Of a stretch of DNA of 64,000 nt, positions 6,253 through 27,058 are shown in pieces. The translations under genes and the position numbers were made by a program. The DNA comes from Escherichia phage vB_EcoM_PHB13. The notes under the pieces are model-generated. The model worked only from the letters and a program-made list of their open reading frames with translations. It did no database searches and was not told the DNA's origin. Where the stretch lies: sequence record MK573636; one strand, 5' to 3'. The stretch's first letter is position 1; each line of letters begins with the position of its first letter.

Positions 6253-6262
6253 GGTGATTATT

Positions 6263-6790
6263 ATGGAATGGGAAGTTGGTAAAACTTACAAGATTGAATG
6301 CGAAGCGTCGAAAGCCGAACTGACTAAATTTTCGTCGTCTATTAACAGATGTATTGTTGACTTGTTGGCTGGTCGCCCGTTTAGGGTAGAAGACCTTGAC
6401 GATGATGGTGATGTTAGAGAAATTACTATTATTGGTAGTAATTTCGACTCTATGACGTTAAAAGAATCCCCTATTGGCTGTTCCGGTGTGTGGTTTTGGT
6501 CGGGTGAGCGTCGTTTCTTTACCGAAGTTACTATTGAACCTAAGATTCCAGATTCGGAAGAAAAAGAAGAAGACCTAACTTTAGAACGCCTGGGTCTGCT
6601 TATGGAAGCCTACGACATTCAGTTGATCGATAAGATGGGGTTACATAATAGCATTGCCAAAATTACTACCCTAGAAGGTATTAAGAGCGTGCTTGATGGT
6701 ATGCCTAGCCGGATCGGTGCTATCCGAGAATACAAGCAAACGCGCGACCGTATGATCCAATTAGAATCACGTATCAAAAATGAGAGATGA
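6263..6790 (+). CDS. hypothetical protein, repeat-domain family (MEWEVGKTY... / ERRFFTEV)
   Basis: ORF track 6254..6790, start moved to ATG. Confidence 0.55.
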   Translation: MEWEVGKTYKIECEASKAELTKFSSSINRCIVDLLAGRPFRVEDLDDDGDVREITIIGSNFDSMTLKESPIGCSGVWFWSGERRFFTEVTIEPKIPDSEEKEEDLTLERLGLLMEAYDIQLIDKMGLHNSIAKITTLEGIKSVLDGMPSRIGAIREYKQTRDRMIQLESRIKNER

Positions 6791-6794
6791 TATT

Positions 6795-7259
6795 ATGAAA
6801 TGGGAAGCTGGTAAGACCTATGCGTGGAAAGATGTAAAAGATGCAAACCAATTTTTTAAATGGTATGATGTTGATTATTTGAAATATCTGAGATTACCGT
6901 TTAAAGTTGCGTCGGTTGATGCGAAAAAAGGATACGTGCGGTCTGTTTATCTTCATGATGGAACTTATATGAGTTCAACCGATGTAGGTCTATCTTGTTG
7001 GTTTCTGGATCATGACCGTAGCAGATTTGAAGAAATTATTATTCCAGAAGAATCTAAATTAATTGATCTTCTCAAGTTGGCGATGGATAATTATAAAATC
7101 CGCTTTGAATGCAAATCACATGCGGCTATCGGTGCTAACGCCTTGCGTCATATCTCCAGTTTTGAAGAGTTGAAAGATTTTCTTGACAAAATGCCGGAAA
7201 GGGTGCAAGCTATACAGGAAGCAGAGAAAGCATTAAACGAACTTGATAAAATCGGTTAA
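6795..7259 (+). CDS. hypothetical protein, repeat-domain family (MKWEAGKTYAWKD...)
   Basis: ORF track 6780..7259, start moved to ATG after SD. Confidence 0.55.
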   Translation: MKWEAGKTYAWKDVKDANQFFKWYDVDYLKYLRLPFKVASVDAKKGYVRSVYLHDGTYMSSTDVGLSCWFLDHDRSRFEEIIIPEESKLIDLLKLAMDNYKIRFECKSHAAIGANALRHISSFEELKDFLDKMPERVQAIQEAEKALNELDKIG

Positions 7260-7271
7260 GGGGAATATATT

Positions 7272-8096
7272 ATGAAATGGGAAATTGGTAAAACTTACAC
7301 CTGGAAAGACGAAAACGCTAAAACTGAGTTTATTACTAACGGAGAAGGTGTTCTTTCTCCACTTAACAGCGATATTAGTGCAGCTATTGGTGACAAGCCA
7401 TTTACCATCATCGAGATCGAGGGTAACGGTTGGATTGATGCAATAGAGCTAGACGGTGTTTATCATACGGCGAAAACTGCTACAGGAAAAGACATTTGGA
7501 AGTCAACATATTTGTTTAGTCCATTTGATAGAAAATTCTTTCGTGAAGTTGAAGAAGTTCCCCAGAAATGGGAAGTTGGTAAAACTTATACTTGGAAAGA
7601 TATTAAGGCTATGACCGACTTCTGTCATTATGCCGAAAACGTATCTAACCTTAATTATGTTATTGCACGAGCAATAAATTATAGACCTTTTACTGTTAAA
7701 AATGTTCGTCCATGTGGGCAAATTGATGTAATTGAAATTGATGGTAAAGACCATACTCTAATGAGCGCAACCGAAGATAGAGACCATAAAGGAACTAGCT
7801 GGTTTATTGATTCTGATAGAAAATTCTTTCGTGAAGTAGAAGAATTGGAAGTTATAACCACTGATTCTAAGATCGTTGGACAGTTGAAACGTCTGTTTAG
7901 TAGTCGTTACGGCCTGACAATGGTTAAATTTGGCGAAGCAAATGAAGGTAAAACCTTTGAACGTTTCGATGATTTCATTTCGGCACTTGACAAGATGGAT
8001 GAAATCATGCAAGATCGCCAGAAGATTAAAGACCTTCAAGAAGACATTAAACGTCGTGAAGTTGAATTTTTGATTGGTAAAGAGCGAGGATGGTAA
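7272..8096 (+). CDS. hypothetical protein, repeat-domain family with two tandem domain copies (WEIGKTYTWKD ... DRKFFREVEE, twice)
   Basis: ORF track; about 23-nt identical DNA repeat near 7528 and 7812. Confidence 0.6.
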   Translation: MKWEIGKTYTWKDENAKTEFITNGEGVLSPLNSDISAAIGDKPFTIIEIEGNGWIDAIELDGVYHTAKTATGKDIWKSTYLFSPFDRKFFREVEEVPQKWEVGKTYTWKDIKAMTDFCHYAENVSNLNYVIARAINYRPFTVKNVRPCGQIDVIEIDGKDHTLMSATEDRDHKGTSWFIDSDRKFFREVEELEVITTDSKIVGQLKRLFSSRYGLTMVKFGEANEGKTFERFDDFISALDKMDEIMQDRQKIKDLQEDIKRREVEFLIGKERGW

Positions 8097-8097
8097 T

Positions 8098-8583
8098 ATG
8101 TTTGTTGCTGGCGTGACCTATCAGTGGAAAGATAAGAAAACGAGAGAAGATTTTGCAAACTTTAGCGTTGCAAATGATGCAATAGCAGAGTTTATCGGCG
8201 ACCGTCCATTTAAAGTTATTGCATTTGATCACCACCATGCATCGGATGTGAATTATGTTTCTGTGATTGAAATTGATGGCACGGTATACACCTGCTGCAA
8301 TGTTGATGATGTACGGGAATACGCGCACAACTGGTTTTTGCAATCAGAAGAACGTCATTTTAAAGTGGTATCGGCAGAGCTATCATCCGAAGCAATGTTG
8401 GAACAATTTTTCAACAACTACGAAGTTTCTGTACGTCGCTATGGCGAAGAAGAAGTGTTTAAAATCGATGATTACAATCAGTTTAAACGAGTATTCGCCA
8501 CTAAGTTACAGCGTGATTTTGAACGCGAGAAGCGCATCAAGGAACTGGAAGAAGAATTGGAAAGATTAAAGGCTGAGAAATGA
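8098..8583 (+). CDS. hypothetical protein, repeat-domain family (GVTYQWKDKK ... ERHFKVV), coiled-coil C-terminus
   Basis: ORF track 8074..8583, start moved to ATG after SD GAGGATGG. Confidence 0.55.
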   Translation: MFVAGVTYQWKDKKTREDFANFSVANDAIAEFIGDRPFKVIAFDHHHASDVNYVSVIEIDGTVYTCCNVDDVREYAHNWFLQSEERHFKVVSAELSSEAMLEQFFNNYEVSVRRYGEEEVFKIDDYNQFKRVFATKLQRDFEREKRIKELEEELERLKAEK

Positions 8584-8849
8584 TCGAGATATACGGTATA
8601 CCGAAAGAGGCTTATCATTGTTATGGTTGTATTAGTGCAATGAAGCTACTGGATGATCTGGGTATTCCGTATACACTTAAACCAGTATTCAAGCAGGTCG
8701 GGGTTGACATTATTCCCGACCGTGATATGATTGAAGAACTGGCGGGGAGGCTAAACTCAAAGAGCCTCCGGTTTGTATACCCCCAGATATTCATTGACAA
8801 CGAGCACATTGGAGGCTATAAAGAACTGAGGGCGATTTATGATTATTGA
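8580..8849 (+). CDS. nrdC: glutaredoxin/thioredoxin-like protein (NrdC/NrdH-like)
   Basis: 89 aa, CxxC motif CYGC near N-terminus, ...HIGGY...L motif; resembles T4 NrdC. Confidence 0.6.
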   Translation: MIEIYGIPKEAYHCYGCISAMKLLDDLGIPYTLKPVFKQVGVDIIPDRDMIEELAGRLNSKSLRFVYPQIFIDNEHIGGYKELRAIYDY

Positions 8850-8997
8850 GAATTTAGTTTCGGTGTTCATTATTGCTTTATTTGCTATAATGACTTTACC
8901 GTTGAAGAAGTGTAAACACTGTAACGGAACAGGATTGCGTGGTGATGGGTGTTGCGCTCATTGTCATGGATCTGGTAAAGTAAGTATCATTAAGTAA
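8839..8997 (+). CDS. small membrane-anchored peptide with two DnaJ-type CxxCxGxG zinc-finger motifs (52 aa)
   Basis: not in track (<60 aa); N-terminal hydrophobic helix then CKHCNGTG...CAHCHGSG. Confidence 0.3.
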   Translation: MIIENLVSVFIIALFAIMTLPLKKCKHCNGTGLRGDGCCAHCHGSGKVSIIK

Positions 8998-9018
8998 TTC
9001 TTGAGTGAGGAATATATT

Positions 9019-9306
9019 ATGTTAGTACACAATGCAATCGCACACATGGTTTATTCTCGATTTGGGCGCAGGGAAGAAATCAATATTACCGACGCAGATT
9101 TAGATCTGATGCAAGTAGAAGGTCAGACATATCTGAAAAATAACGGCGTGAATATCGGTAAAGCGCGTGTGCGTGAATTGTTGGTTGAATATATTCTCTC
9201 TGAATTTGGCATTAGTGCTTTCGGTGTGAAAGAGCTTGCACCTAAGCGCGAAATTTCTGATAAAATGATCAAGAAATGCCAGAAAGCACGACGTAAGGGT
9301 TTCTAA
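9019..9306 (+). CDS. hypothetical protein
   Basis: ORF track 9001..9306; ATG after SD GAGGAATATATT. Confidence 0.45.
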   Translation: MLVHNAIAHMVYSRFGRREEINITDADLDLMQVEGQTYLKNNGVNIGKARVRELLVEYILSEFGISAFGVKELAPKREISDKMIKKCQKARRKGF

Positions 9307-10775
9307 TGAAGATTGAAACATTAATCGCATTGCCAGCGGCGGGGAAAACTGATGCTATACTTTCCCACGTCCTAGAGACAAAAGAAAAAGCGGTTATTGC
9401 TTCGCCATCTCGTGTTTTAAGTGAACAATCTTACAATAAGTTTAAAAGAATGGGCGGTCGTGCTGTCTTGATCGATAGCACAAGACTAAGAAGCCTTAAG
9501 ACAGTGCAAGCGTCGATAATGCAATCAGTTAAAGACGGTGCTGATGTGATATTCATTACACATACAGCGTTATCTAATATGGAACGTTCAAAAATGTTTG
9601 GTGAATATGCTCTTTACATTGATGAAGTTCCTCAACTGGTTGAATTTAATGAGTATCCGTTTAAGTCTAATCTTGAACTTATCACGAAGCATTGCGAACC
9701 AATCGCCGACGAATCGGAATGCCTACAGAACTTAGTTCTAAAAGACTCTGAGAAGGCCGCTATCAAAGAAAAGATAGAAAGTGCAAAGGATGGTACTGAT
9801 ATGATCGATTCTTCTCTTAGAGGGCTTTATGAGGCGTTATTAGAGAAGAAAATCAACGTTATGGTAAAACATAACGAAGGACACCGGAAGAATGGGTCGA
9901 AAATTGTTTTCTTGAACGATAACAAACACGGTACGTGGGGAGACTTTAAAAAGGTTACGATAGCATGTGCAAATCTCTTTGATACATATAGCGGGAAGTA
10001 TCTACGATACTATGCAAATTGCGATTTTGTTCCGAGTGCGCTAGAATCCAGACTATATTTCAAAGAGTATAAAAATACAGATAGAGTTAATATCATCCTT
10101 ATGACGGACTCCGAACGATGGTCGCGTCACCAGTCAGAAACAAACAATACCTTTGAACGTCTTGTTGATATGGTTAAAAATGAATGTGGTGATGACTTCA
10201 TTTATACCGTGAATCGGGACCGTGAAGCGTGCACAAATGGTATTGGCGAGCGGATACCTTACGGATCTTATGGTCTTAACTCTTACATTCATCATAAAAA
10301 TGTTGCTGTGATGTTCAGCTTTAACCCTCAACGATGGGAGATTGATATTTTAAAAGGTCTTGCTAATAGTTGTGATCTCCCGACAAATGAGTTTTTGAAA
10401 GCGCGTCATGTGTCTGATTATCTGGAACCAGCATTTCAATTATGTTTGCGTTGTAACCTGAGAGACAACGAGAGCAAGGAGAATGTTAATCTATATGTTC
10501 CTGATTGGGCGTTGGTAGATTATCTAAAAACGTTTCTACCTAATGCCAATGTAATAACAGACAGAATGATTCCGCTAGAATGTGGTGAGCGTAAAGGGCG
10601 AAAATCATTTAAAAAGATGTTCGATTTTAACGAGCAAGAGAATGCAAGATTTAACGGATTTAAGTACCGCATGAAGAAAAAGGGAAAAACTCTTGATCCG
10701 TCTGACGGTGAATCAGTAGAGATGGTTAGAGTGTGGATAACTAAGCAAAGAAAGTATAATGGCAATGGGGAATAG
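9306..10775 (+). CDS. P-loop NTPase of unknown function (Walker A ALPAAGKT, Walker B LYIDEV)
   Basis: ORF track 489 aa; Walker motifs read directly; AGA/AGG-rich codon usage unlike neighbours. Confidence 0.55.
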   Translation: MKIETLIALPAAGKTDAILSHVLETKEKAVIASPSRVLSEQSYNKFKRMGGRAVLIDSTRLRSLKTVQASIMQSVKDGADVIFITHTALSNMERSKMFGEYALYIDEVPQLVEFNEYPFKSNLELITKHCEPIADESECLQNLVLKDSEKAAIKEKIESAKDGTDMIDSSLRGLYEALLEKKINVMVKHNEGHRKNGSKIVFLNDNKHGTWGDFKKVTIACANLFDTYSGKYLRYYANCDFVPSALESRLYFKEYKNTDRVNIILMTDSERWSRHQSETNNTFERLVDMVKNECGDDFIYTVNRDREACTNGIGERIPYGSYGLNSYIHHKNVAVMFSFNPQRWEIDILKGLANSCDLPTNEFLKARHVSDYLEPAFQLCLRCNLRDNESKENVNLYVPDWALVDYLKTFLPNANVITDRMIPLECGERKGRKSFKKMFDFNEQENARFNGFKYRMKKKGKTLDPSDGESVEMVRVWITKQRKYNGNGE

Positions 10776-10815
10776 CCCGAAAGGGTTATTTCCTAAATAA
10801 TAGCGAGGGTGCGAA

Positions 10816-11349
10816 GTGTCTGATTATGTAAACAATAAAGAGCTTTACGAAGAAATTTGCCGTTGGAAACAACAAATTGCAGCAGAAGGTCGGCAAGTTC
10901 CAATGAGCGATCAAATCGGCCTAGCAATTATGCAAATCTCTAAAAATCTATCACGTCGTTTTAACTTTTCTGGTTATAGTCAAACATGGCGCGAAGAAAT
11001 GATCGACGACGGAATCGAAGCGGCGGTCAAGGGTTTGATTAATTTTGACGAGACAAAGTATAAAAATCCTCATGCTTACATCACGCAAGCGTGCTTTAAT
11101 GCTTTTGTACAGCGCATTAAAAAAGAGAGAACAGCGACAGCCGCAAAATACAAATATTTTGTGCATCATGTATATGACGAACGCGACGCTGATATGTGCC
11201 AGATTGCTGATGAGGCATTCATACAGGACATTTACGATAAAATCAACAACTACGAGGAATCGGTCAATAAACCGAAAGCGCCAAAGGTTGAAGATGTATT
11301 GACTGAGGAATTGCCTAGCCTGGACCAATTTTATGAGATTGAAAATTAA
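10816..11349 (+). CDS. 55: late-transcription sigma factor gp55
   Basis: strong similarity to T4 gp55 ([22 protein letters not shown]; C-terminal clamp-binding tail [10 protein letters not shown]); GTG start. Confidence 0.85.
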
Positions 11350-11566
11350 CATTTCCCGTTTGCTGGAAGAAGCAGAGTTTGAAACTGACCTCGTGCCGTA
11401 TTTCGCCAAATTATTTTTGAGAGATTGCGGCGTTCCGGTGATTATCGATCCGTGCAATATCAAATCACCGGATCTTGAGGTCTTGACGGGTACAATCTCA
11501 CATAGCTATAATGTATCAGAAGATGAATTTTCTTTAATAATTGATTATATCCCAGAGGTAAAATAA
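11333..11566 (+). CDS. hypothetical protein
   Basis: ORF track, 77 aa. Confidence 0.35.
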
Positions 11567-11567
11567 C

Positions 11568-11855
11568 ATGACTTACGATGAACAGCATGACAAGATTGCA
11601 GTGAATGAAGTAGACAAAGTACAAGCAGAACTAGAGGCTAAAGCCGCTAAGAAAGCGGAAAAGATCTTGCGTAAGAACTCGCGAGAGATTGCACGACTTA
11701 AGCGGTGGGCTGAACAAGCTATCATCGATGATAACCGTGATGCGTATATCTACGCTATCGGAAAGTTACGTGATATCTACAAACAGCCACACACGCCAGA
11801 ACTGCTTTCTGCTATGTGGATTAGTACACGGCAAACGGTATTAAGTATGCTGTAA
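11568..11855 (+). CDS. hypothetical protein
   Basis: ORF track, 95 aa. Confidence 0.4.
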   Translation: MTYDEQHDKIAVNEVDKVQAELEAKAAKKAEKILRKNSREIARLKRWAEQAIIDDNRDAYIYAIGKLRDIYKQPHTPELLSAMWISTRQTVLSML

Positions 11856-11945
11856 TGGCTTTATAAGGGAGACTCCGAAAGGGGTTTCCCTTTTTATTTT
11901 TCTGTGATATAGTGAGAGCATCGAAAACGAAGAGAGGAAGAGACT

Positions 11946-12971
11946 ATGAAAATTTTGCTTTTAGGTGATCTGCATACTGGCATCGGTGGCGATGATCCGT
12001 GGGTGCATGAGTATATTTTAGACACGATCAAGAAAGCTGTTGATTATTCTAAAGAAAATGGTATTAAGATATGGATTCAAACAGGGGATTGGTTTGATTG
12101 TCGCAAGGCTATCACACATGAAACCATGAAATTTAACCGTACTAAGGTCATCCCATTACTGGAAGAGGCAGGAATCACCTGTTATATCACGGTCGGGAAT
12201 CATGATATGTTTAAACGCAATAAGATCCAGCCTAACGCGCCGCGTGAAGTGTTAAGCCAGTATGATTGCATTAAGGTTATTGATAAGCCAGAAACAGTTA
12301 CCTTTGATGGGGTATCATTCGACCTGTTCCCGTGGTTTTGTGATGACAATAAATCCGAGGTTTTAGAGTTTATTCAAAATTCATTCAGCGAATATTGTGT
12401 AGGCCATTGGGAATTGTCCGGCTACTATTTCTATAAAGGGTTAAAATCCGAAGGTTATAGCGCGGACTTCCTCAAGAAATACCGTGAAGTGTTTTCCGGT
12501 CACTTTCATACTATCAGTGATGGCGGTAACGTAACGTATATTGGCACACCATACACACTAACGGCTGGCGACGAAAATGATCCGCGTGGTTTTTGGGTAT
12601 TCGATACAGATACACACAAAAAGGAGTTTATCCAGAATGACAAAACTTATCATGTGCGTATCACTTACCCGTCAGATGATAAAATCGATGTAGAACGCTT
12701 TAAAGGGCTTAGTGTGCGCCTAATTGCAACGGTCGCTGATAATGGGTTAACTAAGTTAGAAAGCGCGTTAGAAGCCGTTGTGCATAAGCTAAAAGTTGTC
12801 CATAAGCTGGAGAGTAGCGCATCACAGGAAACAGGTGTTATTGAAGTTAAAAGCACTATTCAGATGGTCTATGAATATCTGGAAGAACAAAACCTAGAAC
12901 CGGAAGAACTTGCGGCGGTCAAGCGTATTTCTGATGAACTTTTAGCCGAAGTAAATAACGCAAAAAGTTAG
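11946..12971 (+). CDS. 47: recombination endonuclease subunit gp47 (Mre11-like)
   Basis: phosphoesterase motifs LLLGDLHTG, GDWFD, GNHD; synteny 55-47-46. Confidence 0.85.
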   Translation: MKILLLGDLHTGIGGDDPWVHEYILDTIKKAVDYSKENGIKIWIQTGDWFDCRKAITHETMKFNRTKVIPLLEEAGITCYITVGNHDMFKRNKIQPNAPREVLSQYDCIKVIDKPETVTFDGVSFDLFPWFCDDNKSEVLEFIQNSFSEYCVGHWELSGYYFYKGLKSEGYSADFLKKYREVFSGHFHTISDGGNVTYIGTPYTLTAGDENDPRGFWVFDTDTHKKEFIQNDKTYHVRITYPSDDKIDVERFKGLSVRLIATVADNGLTKLESALEAVVHKLKVVHKLESSASQETGVIEVKSTIQMVYEYLEEQNLEPEELAAVKRISDELLAEVNNAKS

Positions 12972-13000
12972 TTGACGCGGGGAGAAATCCCCGTTATACT
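12972..13000 (+). promoter_or_regulatory. early promoter TTGACG / TATACT with stem-loop CGGGGA-gaaa-TCCCCG in spacer
   Basis: read directly. Confidence 0.45.
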
Positions 13001-13025
13001 CTCTAAAAATTGATTGGAGGTTGTT

Positions 13026-13271
13026 ATGGTTACTAATGCACTGAAAGAAATCAACGAAGGTTTGTCGAAATTCACTAAGATCCATGTATTTGAGGTTGTG
13101 CGAGATGGTCAGTATATGCTATCATTTCGGTCTAACTATGGTTTATGGACTCATGACGAAATCCCATTTGATCGTGAAAATATCACCAAAGAGTGGCTAA
13201 CAAACATCGTATCCCGTAAGGTTGCTGATATTACCCAGAATGTTATTGCTCGTGAATCGTGGAGTATGTAA
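13026..13271 (+). CDS. hypothetical protein
   Basis: ORF track 13014..13271, ATG start. Confidence 0.4.
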   Translation: MVTNALKEINEGLSKFTKIHVFEVVRDGQYMLSFRSNYGLWTHDEIPFDRENITKEWLTNIVSRKVADITQNVIARESWSM

Positions 13272-13272
13272 A

Positions 13273-13590
13273 ATGAAAACACTTGCACAAAAAGTAGTAG
13301 AATTTAATGCAGCTTTGCCTATGTTTGCTCGACGTAAGGGGATCTCCGTTGATGTATGGTATTCTAAAGAGCATGAAGAAGTTCGGATGATGGTCGAAAA
13401 GCGACTCACCGATACTACTGTTAAGTGTAAGATTCGCTCTATTCCTCGCGCGGAAATAGAATTTGATGAAAGCTATTACTTTACGCTGCGTCATGTGCTG
13501 AAACAAGCAGTGGATGAACTTTTAGAAGACCTGAAACAATATGAGATTGAACGAGGAACATATTATGAATACGACTATGGTCGCGGCTGA
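13273..13590 (+). CDS. hypothetical protein
   Basis: in-frame ATG within track ORF 13222..13590. Confidence 0.4.
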   Translation: MKTLAQKVVEFNAALPMFARRKGISVDVWYSKEHEEVRMMVEKRLTDTTVKCKIRSIPRAEIEFDESYYFTLRHVLKQAVDELLEDLKQYEIERGTYYEYDYGRG

Positions 13591-26359: not shown

Positions 26360-26734
26360 ATGAAAAATATGATTACGCCGGAAGATGTAGCATTTAAAAC
26401 CGCAAATAACGGAGACATTCTTATTTTTATCGACGGTAAACATGCTGGTATGGTTGAACCGGAAGGACGCTGGGGAGTCGCCGAACTTTATGATGTGGCT
26501 GGTGTAGATCCGAAAACTGCAATTGTTTTTCTGGCGGATAAAGATCAAATGCGTCGAAAAATTGCTGCGCTCTATAATGAAGCATTGTATTTCTACGAAC
26601 CGTTTCATCGTATTAAAACGATCTCCCGCGTGACTCGAAAAGATGTTAATGCTTGTGTTATCAAGATTGTAGAGAATCAGGATAAACTGACGAAAGACCA
26701 GATTGTTGACTTACTGAAAGAGATTATTCTATGA
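26360..26734 (+). CDS. hypothetical protein
   Basis: ORF track; SD GGAGACTATATT. Confidence 0.45.
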   Translation: MKNMITPEDVAFKTANNGDILIFIDGKHAGMVEPEGRWGVAELYDVAGVDPKTAIVFLADKDQMRRKIAALYNEALYFYEPFHRIKTISRVTRKDVNACVIKIVENQDKLTKDQIVDLLKEIIL

Positions 26735-26906
26735 TTGGCTTTAAACAGTTTGTTGAAGAAAATAAACTCAAAGAAGATATGACCGCTGGCGATGCTGGCG
26801 GCAATCCTGAGAAGATCGCAGCAGGTGAAACGAGCGGATCTATTACCAATCGTGGACCTAGTGTAGCGGGTAAAGAAAAACGCAAAAAGGAGAAAGACGG
26901 TGCTTA
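26730..26906 (+). CDS. hypothetical small protein (58 aa, Gly/Lys-rich)
   Basis: not in track; ATGA overlap with upstream stop. Confidence 0.2.
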
Positions 26907-26914
26907 GTATCATC

Positions 26915-27058
26915 ATGTTTATCGTTGGCTTGCTGTCCGCTATTATCGGTGTTGTTGTTTTCGGATTATCTGGACACAAAACAAAAACAGAAAAGTTATC
27001 CGAGATCACAATGTATGTTGGTGTAGTTCTCATTCTGTTGTCGGTGGCGCTTAAATGA
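26915..27058 (+). CDS. hypothetical small membrane peptide (2 predicted TM helices)
   Basis: not in track; hydrophobic sequence read directly. Confidence 0.2.
   Translation: MFIVGLLSAIIGVVVFGLSGHKTKTEKLSEITMYVGVVLILLSVALK

Follow-up and report, generated by a model that had tools for sequence, protein, structure and literature searches.

A predicted XPD/DinG-like SF2 helicase in the early replication cluster of Escherichia phage vB_EcoM_PHB13

Immediately upstream of gene 55 in Escherichia phage vB_EcoM_PHB13 lies an open reading frame (ORF) whose product is called a "hypothetical protein" in nearly all GenBank records, and the locus raises the question of what this protein is and how it came to sit in an early replication cluster. 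We analyzed a 64,000-nucleotide stretch of the phage's sequence record (MK573636; hereafter, the window), for which the ORF list confirms a 489-codon frame with an ATG start at exactly 9306–10775 on the plus strand. A preliminary description, made from the letters of this stretch, had presented the product as a P-loop nucleoside triphosphatase (NTPase) with Walker A and B motifs and without an assigned function, which agrees with our results, and as a protein with no further recognizable helicase similarity whose codon usage suggested horizontal acquisition, which does not. We refer to it throughout as X, a 489-residue superfamily 2 (SF2) helicase-like ATPase. The evidence below makes X very probably an active SF2 ATPase/translocase of XPD/DinG-like architecture, and we lean, with moderate confidence, toward a role for it in DNA replication or recombination.

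Fold and active site of X

When X was compared with Pfam, it matched the DEAD/DEAH family (PF00270) over residues 11–130 at 27.4 bits, against a cut-off of 26; the only other returns were AAA_34 and one spurious match. X also aligns along its whole length (residues 1–489) with positions 8–502 of the 502-position profile of PHROG 2467, a family of unassigned function (E = 8.8e-175). The AlphaFold2 (AF2) model of X has a predicted local distance difference test score (pLDDT) of 87.8 and a predicted template modeling score (pTM) of 0.76, and it displays what defines an SF2 protein, namely two tandem RecA-like domains with motif I, a DExx motif II, and an arginine-bearing motif VI at the ATP cleft. 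A Foldseek search with this model returned XPD (E = 3e-10) and CasDinG (E = 7.5e-10). XPD/DinG chains aligned over 318–348 residues versus ~240–260 for other SF2 classes, that is, over ~70–90 more residues of X. As judged from the model, the fold of X is that of an SF2 helicase, nearest to XPD/DinG; with the PF00270 match and the conserved motif VI, it overturns the earlier statement that X has no similarity to a helicase beyond its Walker motifs.

The active-site residues were followed in two sets of sequences: an alignment of 29 homologues of X with 32–74% identity (alignment A1), and 136 members from outside the T4-like clade that were aligned to the family profile (the distant members). 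An exhaustive profile search places 1,323 clusters at 50% identity in this family with E ≤ 1e-3, and 756 with E ≤ 1e-10. Both Walker motifs are present, ALPAAGKT at residues 8–15 and LYIDEV at 103–108, with G13, K14, T15, D106, and E107 invariant in A1, and with G13 and K14 conserved in 88–89% of the distant members. The motif Ia-like segment ASPSRVLSEQS aligns, in a profile of the long family forms described below, with "PTReLa.Q" in chains of DEAD-box proteins and reverse gyrase. In the distant members conservation also extends to A222 of the motif III-like segment (95%) and to G323 and N325 (each 100%), N303 (94%), and N340 (85%) of the second RecA-like domain, while Q378, R382, and R386 of motif VI are found in 100% of them and are invariant in alignments A1 and A2. 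Three further residues, S273, V398, and D400, are identical to X in at least 80% of the distant members, and the positions that reach this level correspond almost exactly to the ATPase/translocase set. This conservation pattern indicates that X is a functional NTPase whose motif VI supplies arginine fingers, rather than a degenerate relic. Coordinates of these elements are collected in Table 1.

Between motifs II and III, the first RecA-like domain of X carries an insertion of ~106 residues (110–215), which the model resolves into three strands plus a helical hairpin and which coincides in position with the Arch domain of XPD/DinG. This position and the longer XPD/DinG alignments lend indirect support to the possibility that it is an Arch-like element.

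Several results weigh against the assignment to the XPD/DinG class. The Foldseek TM-scores are modest (0.41–0.49). A search of PDB sequences with the A1 profile gave no relevant match to any solved structure, and X matched neither DEAD_2 nor Helicase_C_2, the Pfam profiles of XPD/DinG; sequence profiles thus fail to reach the XPD/DinG families and reach DEAD alone, just over the Pfam threshold. The Fe-S domain that serves as the strand-separating wedge in XPD is missing from X: the four cysteines that are the XPD/DinG hallmark between motifs Ia and II are absent, C130 and C380 are the only invariant cysteines in A1, and cysteine is conserved in ≤18% of the distant members at any position. In the model, the stretch from residue 42 to residue 81 is too short to hold such a domain, and only ~45 residues separate motifs Ia and Ib. 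Scans of X against NCBIfam yielded nothing meaningful. The long-form profile matched PDB chains of DEAD-box proteins, reverse gyrase, Mfd, and RecG over the generic motif I–Ia region only, and the PADLOC typeIV_DinG profile matched a single long relative, over its N-terminal 120 residues.

Codon usage, synteny, and descent

In a tblastn comparison, X proved 100% identical to RB49ORF044c (AAQ15319.1), which is annotated as a "hypothetical protein" in Escherichia phage RB49. Homologues occur in 243 phage records, at least 80% of the protein being covered in 237 of them; hence, X is a genuine gene, not an ORF that arose by chance. At the DNA level, window positions 8500–13500 are ~97.8% identical to phages E26 and ECD7, and the window belongs to a Krischvirus. 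By the RB49 annotation, X lies between 55.2 upstream and 55 downstream, in an early cluster that reads nrdD-nrdG-nrdH-55.2-X-55-47-46-45-44-62-43-uvsX-41-61-dda. The preliminary description had placed X between nrdC and gene 55; the downstream neighbor is indeed gene 55, and the nearby redoxin gene is annotated as nrdH, not nrdC.

The suggestion of horizontal acquisition was based on codon usage said to be AT-rich and to contain frequent AGA/AGG codons. We compared X with the rest of the 77 non-overlapping window ORFs of at least 80 codons. The GC content of X (0.390) is close to the mean over the 77 ORFs (0.400; z = −0.48), as is its GC content at third codon positions (GC3; 0.359 versus a mean of 0.374; z = −0.31), so X is not AT-rich. 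AGA is enriched (11 of 28 arginine codons), as had been noticed, while AGG does not occur at all. Pooled over the other ORFs, AGA and AGG (AGR) make up 15% of arginine codons (Fisher p = 0.0015 versus X), and yet 13 of the 76 other ORFs, including 4 of the 30 with at least 200 codons, have an AGR fraction equal to or above that of X. The leave-one-out synonymous-codon log-likelihood of X gave z = −0.9 relative to all ORFs and z = −1.3 relative to ORFs of at least 200 codons, the second-lowest value among 30 long ORFs. The codon bias of X is therefore mild, shared with other ORFs, and accessory-gene-like, without a foreign signature; the codon statistics largely match the rest of the genome.

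The same comparison drew attention to a 117-codon minus-strand ORF (26677–27033) within an otherwise plus-strand gene block. Its GC content at first codon positions (GC1) is 0.29, its synonymous-codon likelihood is the lowest of the 77 ORFs, and AGR accounts for five of its seven arginine codons; rather than being a gene, it probably represents a non-coding shadow ORF.

The position of X is common to Krischvirus, Pseudotevenvirus, Tulanevirus, Roskildevirus, Bragavirus, Ceceduovirus, and two unclassified Straboviridae. X lies between nrd/glutaredoxin genes and 55 in RB49 (Krischvirus), Aes508 (Tulanevirus), Cronus (Roskildevirus), PM2 (Bragavirus), Cronobacter phage S13, and Assk (Ceceduovirus); in RB43 and JC221 it follows 55.2, but gp34 instead of 55 is encoded downstream. 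Across these lineages the X proteins are 35–42% identical to the window protein, and the flanking core proteins of the same phages are 34–63% (gp55), 38–56% (gp47), and 43–53% (gp46) identical to their window counterparts. The divergence of X thus parallels that of gp55, gp47, and gp46, and in many T4-like phages X has come down by vertical inheritance, not by recent acquisition. T4 itself has only the 87-residue gene 55.1 between 55.2 and 55 and lacks X, as do its closest relatives; the simplest history has X as an ancient gene of the Straboviridae, which the T4 branch has since lost or replaced.

On its composition, its synteny, and its divergence in step with the neighboring genes, we reject a recent horizontal acquisition of X. 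The wider proposal, that X is a recently acquired accessory P-loop NTPase of no recognizable class and marked as foreign by its codons, can draw on the AGA excess, the low synonymous-codon likelihood, and the absence of X from T4, but it is highly improbable given the typical GC and GC3, the ORFs with equal or higher AGR, the same slot in at least eight Straboviridae lineages, the divergence in step with the flanking core genes, and a fold that is clearly that of an SF2 helicase.

Two other accounts of this distribution were discarded. X is not limited to T4-like phages with unmodified cytosine, as in Erwinia phage Cronus a single locus combines X with a DNA alpha-glucosyltransferase gene, and it does not substitute for a missing T4 helicase, as RB49 has dda, 41, and 61. 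In Aeromonas phage phiAS4 the ORF upstream of X is labeled "DprA-like"; Pfam gave no support for that label in the Aes508 equivalent.

Primase fusions and mobile elements among distant relatives

Evidence on function comes from the distant relatives of X. We retrieved 184 family members of at least 400 residues, of which 62 are long forms (700–1,270 residues) in which the helicase module is followed by ~350 extra residues. Roughly one in three of the distant relatives with the best scores has, C-terminal of the helicase, an archaeo-eukaryotic primase (AEP)-fold domain and a PriCT-like tail, with the consensus K.DN.L.SPA.F ... WLDxDGG ... RYRxxIPT ... GxDxSK ... FYLP ... GxGNxxFFxLxxxLxxxGL. 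PriCT_1 and PriCT_2 of Pfam match a few long forms (best E = 4.9e-7), the PHROG "DNA primase" family phrog_9765 matches the extension (E = 1e-8), and a search of PDB sequences with a profile of the extension returned nothing useful. The metal-binding triad of the extension is conserved (D131 in 61 of 62, D/E133 in 62 of 62, and D213 in 61 of 62), and the AEP motif II histidine is replaced by arginine in 58 of the 62. Two members are extended at the N-terminus instead, one of which (P0126) has FDFD and GSGHVYV segments that resemble AEP motifs I and II; this resemblance is only a hint that they are those motifs. X itself ends at residue 489 with a ~60-residue helical tail, and the AEP DxD/E...D triad was not found in it. 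GenBank labels for X homologues disagree, with "putative helicase" in ON286974.1 (phage W115) and "DNA primase" in PP889458.1 (Klebsiella phage phi1_146002); because the short form has no primase domain, the latter label was probably carried over from the fused relatives.

In many long forms (for example P0142, P0183, and P0099), the linker that directly follows the helicase core and leads to the AEP domain contains basic motifs of the GRP(K/T)K type that resemble AT-hooks. The version in T4-like proteins is degenerate (KGRKSFKK, residues ~429–436, window ~10590–10613). By its sequence, this motif may be a minor-groove DNA-binding element.

The contexts of these relatives are those of phages and mobile elements. 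The long forms in L004 and L007 lie on phage contigs with capsid, tail, PhoH, and HNH genes, and no other recognizable replication gene was found within 10 kb of either; those in L006 and L010 adjoin serine recombinases (resolvases). The nearest short forms outside the T4-like phages come from a 146-kb phage contig (L017) and from two chromosomal islands of ~11.5 kb, one bracketed by duplicated signal recognition particle (SRP) RNA sequences (L019, 5689–17383) and the other by two tRNA matches (L020, 1645–13280). Each island holds genes for a DUF6538 protein (which carries a fused Phage_integrase domain in L019 only), for the X-like short helicase, and for a serine recombinase, together with an AT-rich non-coding stretch of ~1 kb; the two give the impression of a family of small integrative elements with the helicase as their sole replication-type gene. 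A role of the X family as a common plasmid Rep was considered and rejected, a plasmid search with one long form having yielded three Sinorhizobium megaplasmids only, with matches confined to the helicase part.

The ~1 kb of non-coding DNA after the helicase (GC 0.35–0.40 in L017, L019, and L020) bears on whether X could be an origin-binding initiator. In the gaps after the L017–L020 short forms, the A3 profile detected no hidden or frameshifted primase domain in three forward frames. The L017 region (9497–10672) contains a 39-nt inverted repeat and several repeat families, such as ATACCCC..AAAATATC (three copies) and GGTA.TTTGTAGG, and may be an origin or serve regulation; the corresponding regions of L019 and L020 have weak repeats only, and iterons in these gaps are suggestive only. 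Under an initiator model resembling that of herpesvirus UL9, the basic C-terminal tail of X would recognize a specific phage site and the motor would melt it. Such a model accords with these non-coding regions and the L017 repeats, with the basic tail after the motor and the AT-hook-like motifs of the long forms, with weak Herpes_ori_bp (PF02399) matches in 3 of 57 long forms (E ~0.009), and with the published finding that the related pVOG9714 has its greatest similarity to UL9/PF02399 (Kazlauskas et al., PMC5862659). It is nevertheless unlikely for X, which has no PF02399 match at E ≤ 1 and is separated from gene 55 by ~40 bp in T4-like phages, with no adjacent non-coding or iteron region, and the repeats of both islands are weak. 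Nor are we aware of a T4 replication origin close to gene 55.

The L006 long form also adjoins a type I restriction-modification (R-M) system, which is one of the observations behind a different idea, that X is a conflict or counter-defence helicase/translocase acting on host DNA-protein complexes or against a host defence system. X lies in a variable region rich in small host-modulating ORFs, the T4 55.1 and 55.2 products both act on host proteins, and a counter-defence role would explain the patchy retention of X, including its absence from T4, and its accessory-gene-like codon usage. Against this stand the deep, syntenic, vertical conservation of X, unlike the turnover typical of anti-defence genes, and a recurrent fusion partner that is a primase and no nuclease or sensor; the PADLOC scan of X returned RTasSLATT only, at a non-significant E of 0.0088 and with no matched stretch. 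We therefore regard a counter-defence function as quite unlikely.

The 55.2–X pair, proposed role, and known systems

T4 gp55.2 (E = 3e-42), like the 55.2 protein of the window (Table 1), is a DUF7570 member, and the DUF7570 gene abuts or overlaps X in six of the eight lineages examined (the window, RB43, JC221, PM2, S13, and Assk); in Aes508, two ORFs separate the two genes. Because the stop codon of 55.2 overlaps the start codon of X, the two genes are a conserved pair whose translation is probably coupled, an arrangement that suggests their co-expression. Loss of topoisomerase I favors negative supercoiling and R-loops; R-loops are unwound by DinG-type helicases and are used in T4 origin initiation. 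T4 gp55.2 is an early-expressed inhibitor of Escherichia coli topoisomerase I that raises phage fitness (PMC4396842). A functional link between 55.2 and X through R-loops is speculation.

Pattern scans outline a possible transcription unit. A sigma-70-like sequence upstream of 55.2, at a site where the RB49 record annotates no promoter, is by its consensus match a possible early promoter for 55.2-X, and the first strong terminator-like hairpin downstream possibly ends a putative 55.2-X-55-a-gt.5-a-gt.4 unit (Table 1). The T4 late-promoter motif TATAAATA does not occur near X, its only two window matches being at 53 kb and 58 kb.

The proximity of gene 55 invites the explanation that X is an RNA helicase or transcription-linked motor working with the late sigma factor gp55, for instance in remodeling RNA polymerase or RNA-DNA hybrids at the middle-to-late switch. 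In most lineages gene 55 directly follows X, and the two are probably co-transcribed, there being no predicted terminator before 11865; DEAD/DEAH is its sole Pfam family, and several DEAD-box RNA helicases occur among its fold matches. But the XPD/DinG DNA helicases are clearly ahead of the RNA helicases in those matches, the fusion partner in the relatives has a DNA primase-polymerase fold, and RB43 and JC221 have gp34 downstream of X with 55.2-X intact, all of which makes a transcriptional role very unlikely.

Table 1. Coordinates of X, its sequence elements, and flanking features in the window.
Feature	Coordinates	Strand	Basis and remarks
Coding sequence of X (RB49ORF044c / AAQ15319.1)	9306..10775	+	Stop codon included; ORF list, tblastn, RB49 annotation, PHROG 2467
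Motif I / Walker A, ALPAAGKT, residues 8–15	9327..9350	+	P10, G13, K14, T15 invariant in A1
Motif Ia-like strand and helix, ASPSRVLSEQS, residues 32–42	9399..9431	+	S33, L38, S42 invariant in A1
Motif II / Walker B, LYIDEVP, residues 103–109	9612..9632	+	D106, E107 100%, P109 88% in 136 distant members
Insertion of ~106 residues (110–215) in RecA-like domain 1, between motifs II and III	9633..9950	+	Model
Motif III-like ACAN, residues 220–223, end of strand 216–221	9963..9974	+	N223 ≥90% in A1
RecA-like domain 2, ~residues 258–420	10077..10565	+	Model; FIYTxN (298–303), G-x-N (G323, N325), FSxNP (337–341)
Motif VI, FQLCLRCNLR, residues 377–386	10434..10463	+	Candidate arginine fingers R382, R386
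C-terminal tail, basic, two helices (443–458, 468–486), residues 427–489	10584..10772	+	Model; E445, W477 invariant in A1
Gene 55.2 (Pfam DUF7570)	9019..9306	+	TAA stop overlaps X ATG (TAATG); DUF7570 E = 8.6e-28
Sigma-70-like match, TTGTCA-18-TATCAT	8961..8990	+	Just upstream of 55.2; pattern scan, 10/12 matches
Terminator-like hairpin, 12-bp stem then T run	11865..11892	+	After a-gt.4; pattern scan; first strong one downstream

Other features of the surrounding region may be recorded here. RB49 carries an HNH/AP2 homing-endonuclease-like gene of 555 bp (RB49ORF040c) between a-gt.4 and 47, where the window has ~90 bp only (11856–11945), among them the terminator-like hairpin of Table 1; the mobile endonuclease thus shows a presence/absence polymorphism among Krischviruses. 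Upstream of 55.2, a 52-residue ORF (8839–8997, plus strand; the equivalent of RB49ORF046c) combines an N-terminal hydrophobic helix with two CxxCxGxG motifs (CKHCNGTG ... CAHCHGSG) that resemble DnaJ zinc-finger repeats, and it matches phrog_3931, whose function is unassigned. Between nrdG and nrdH (6254–8583, plus strand) lie four tandem paralogues of 178, 159, 274, and 169 residues, all starting with W-E/K-x-GKTY-x-WKD and the 274-residue one having two copies of the domain; they match phrog_5347 (E = 1e-55 to 1e-92) and, more weakly, the "goF mRNA metabolism modulator" PHROGs, and represent a locally amplified family.

The reading that we favor is that of an SF2 helicase acting in DNA replication or recombination. 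X would be a DNA-dependent ATPase/helicase that lacks an Fe-S cluster and has two RecA-like domains, the first with an insertion at the Arch position. Its gene is an early one of long standing and vertical descent in the Straboviridae replication/recombination/nucleotide-metabolism cluster. As conservation suggests, ATP would be bound and hydrolyzed in the cleft between the RecA domains by way of K14, D106/E107, and R382/R386, and by analogy with XPD/DinG the protein would translocate along single-stranded DNA, with 5'→3' the probable direction. The AEP fusions, and the islands and phage contigs in which the helicase is the sole replication gene, point to an ancestral job of opening DNA for priming or initiation. 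In T4-like phages, X may be an accessory helicase for initiation, restart, or R-loop/D-loop processing, beside gp41/gp61 and Dda; an accessory role would explain the loss of X in some lineages.

Our confidence in this role is tempered by a number of considerations. T4 is without X, so that X is dispensable for a T4-type replication programme, and RB49 already has gp41, gp61, Dda, and UvsX, so that no missing function calls for it. The T4-like X proteins carry no primase domain, which makes their replication role a case of guilt by association. Both the choice of DNA over RNA as substrate and the polarity rest on analogy, and a literature search for experiments on the X gene found none.

A bolder extension of the favored reading may be entertained, tentatively and with more doubt than belief. 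The family would be an Fe-S-less, XPD/DinG-like branch of SF2 that provides mobile elements with a replicative or initiator helicase; the fused form would be a single-chain "mini-primosome" on an SF2 motor, and T4-like phages would have kept the motor alone as a fourth replication helicase, co-expressed with 55.2 and possibly exploiting or resolving R-loops. To our knowledge, a replicative helicase-primase with an SF2 motor has not been described from any phage or bacterium.

T4 replication is among the best understood systems, with three helicases described (gp41, Dda, and UvsW). X adds a fourth helicase-type gene, which relatives of T4 in their hundreds carry in the early replication cluster and which the T4 branch alone is without; the textbook T4 gene set is thereby shown to be a reduced version of the family repertoire. 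The AEP fusions and sole-replication-gene islands supply a concrete, testable hypothesis for an uncharacterized family of more than 1,300 clusters at 50% identity. For annotation, "hypothetical protein" can be replaced by "putative SF2 (XPD/DinG-like) DNA helicase," and "DNA primase" should be avoided for the short form.

A novel helicase family of viruses and plasmids, including some T4-like phages, was predicted in 2018 (Kazlauskas et al., PMC5862659), and X is probably an ordinary-looking member of it. Its pVOG1685 and pVOG9714 proteins, uncharacterized in that study, are described in terms that fit X: remote SF2-like proteins with Walker A/B motifs, found in T4-like phages, with homologous helicase domains fused to AEP primases; by this description, RB49ORF044c is a candidate member of pVOG1685. 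The fusions reported there have the order Prim+zf-CHC2+helicase, with the primase N-terminal, whereas ours mostly have the helicase first, then the AEP domain and the PriCT-like tail, and a BLAST comparison of the All3500 primase domains of PMC5862659 with the relatives found here gave nothing significant. The XPD/DinG-type Fe-S-less fold, the helicase-first AEP+PriCT fusion, and the conserved 55.2-X pair may go beyond that study.

Among characterized helicases, X matches XPD, Rad3, DinG, and CasDinG, SF2 DNA helicases with 5'→3' polarity, by fold but without sequence-level membership. It differs from them in having no Fe-S domain, even vestigial, and no conserved cysteine to build one, in its much smaller size (489 residues), and in a motif VI of the form Q-x3-R-x3-R. 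Herpesvirus UL9 (SF2, PF02399) is likewise viral and tied to replication initiation, with an N-terminal motor and a C-terminal DNA-binding part, but X has neither the PF02399 match nor an origin-binding domain. UL9 moves 3'→5', whereas the best fold match of X is the 5'→3' XPD class. Like P4 alpha, T7 gp4, and herpesvirus UL5/UL52, the ~800-residue relatives of X join a helicase motor to a primase-fold domain, and they follow a primosome-like logic in phages and small integrative elements in which they are the only evident replication protein. The motors differ, being SF3 in P4 alpha, SF4 in T7 gp4, and SF1 in UL5, as against an XPD/DinG-like SF2 motor placed before the primase in the relatives of X; unlike these single-chain or complexed helicase-primases, X of the window itself has no primase domain. 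The closest functional parallels within T4 may be Dda (SF1) and UvsW (SF2), early helicases that are not replicative rings and that aid initiation, fork progression, and R-loop or branch processing, which is the kind of role we propose for X.

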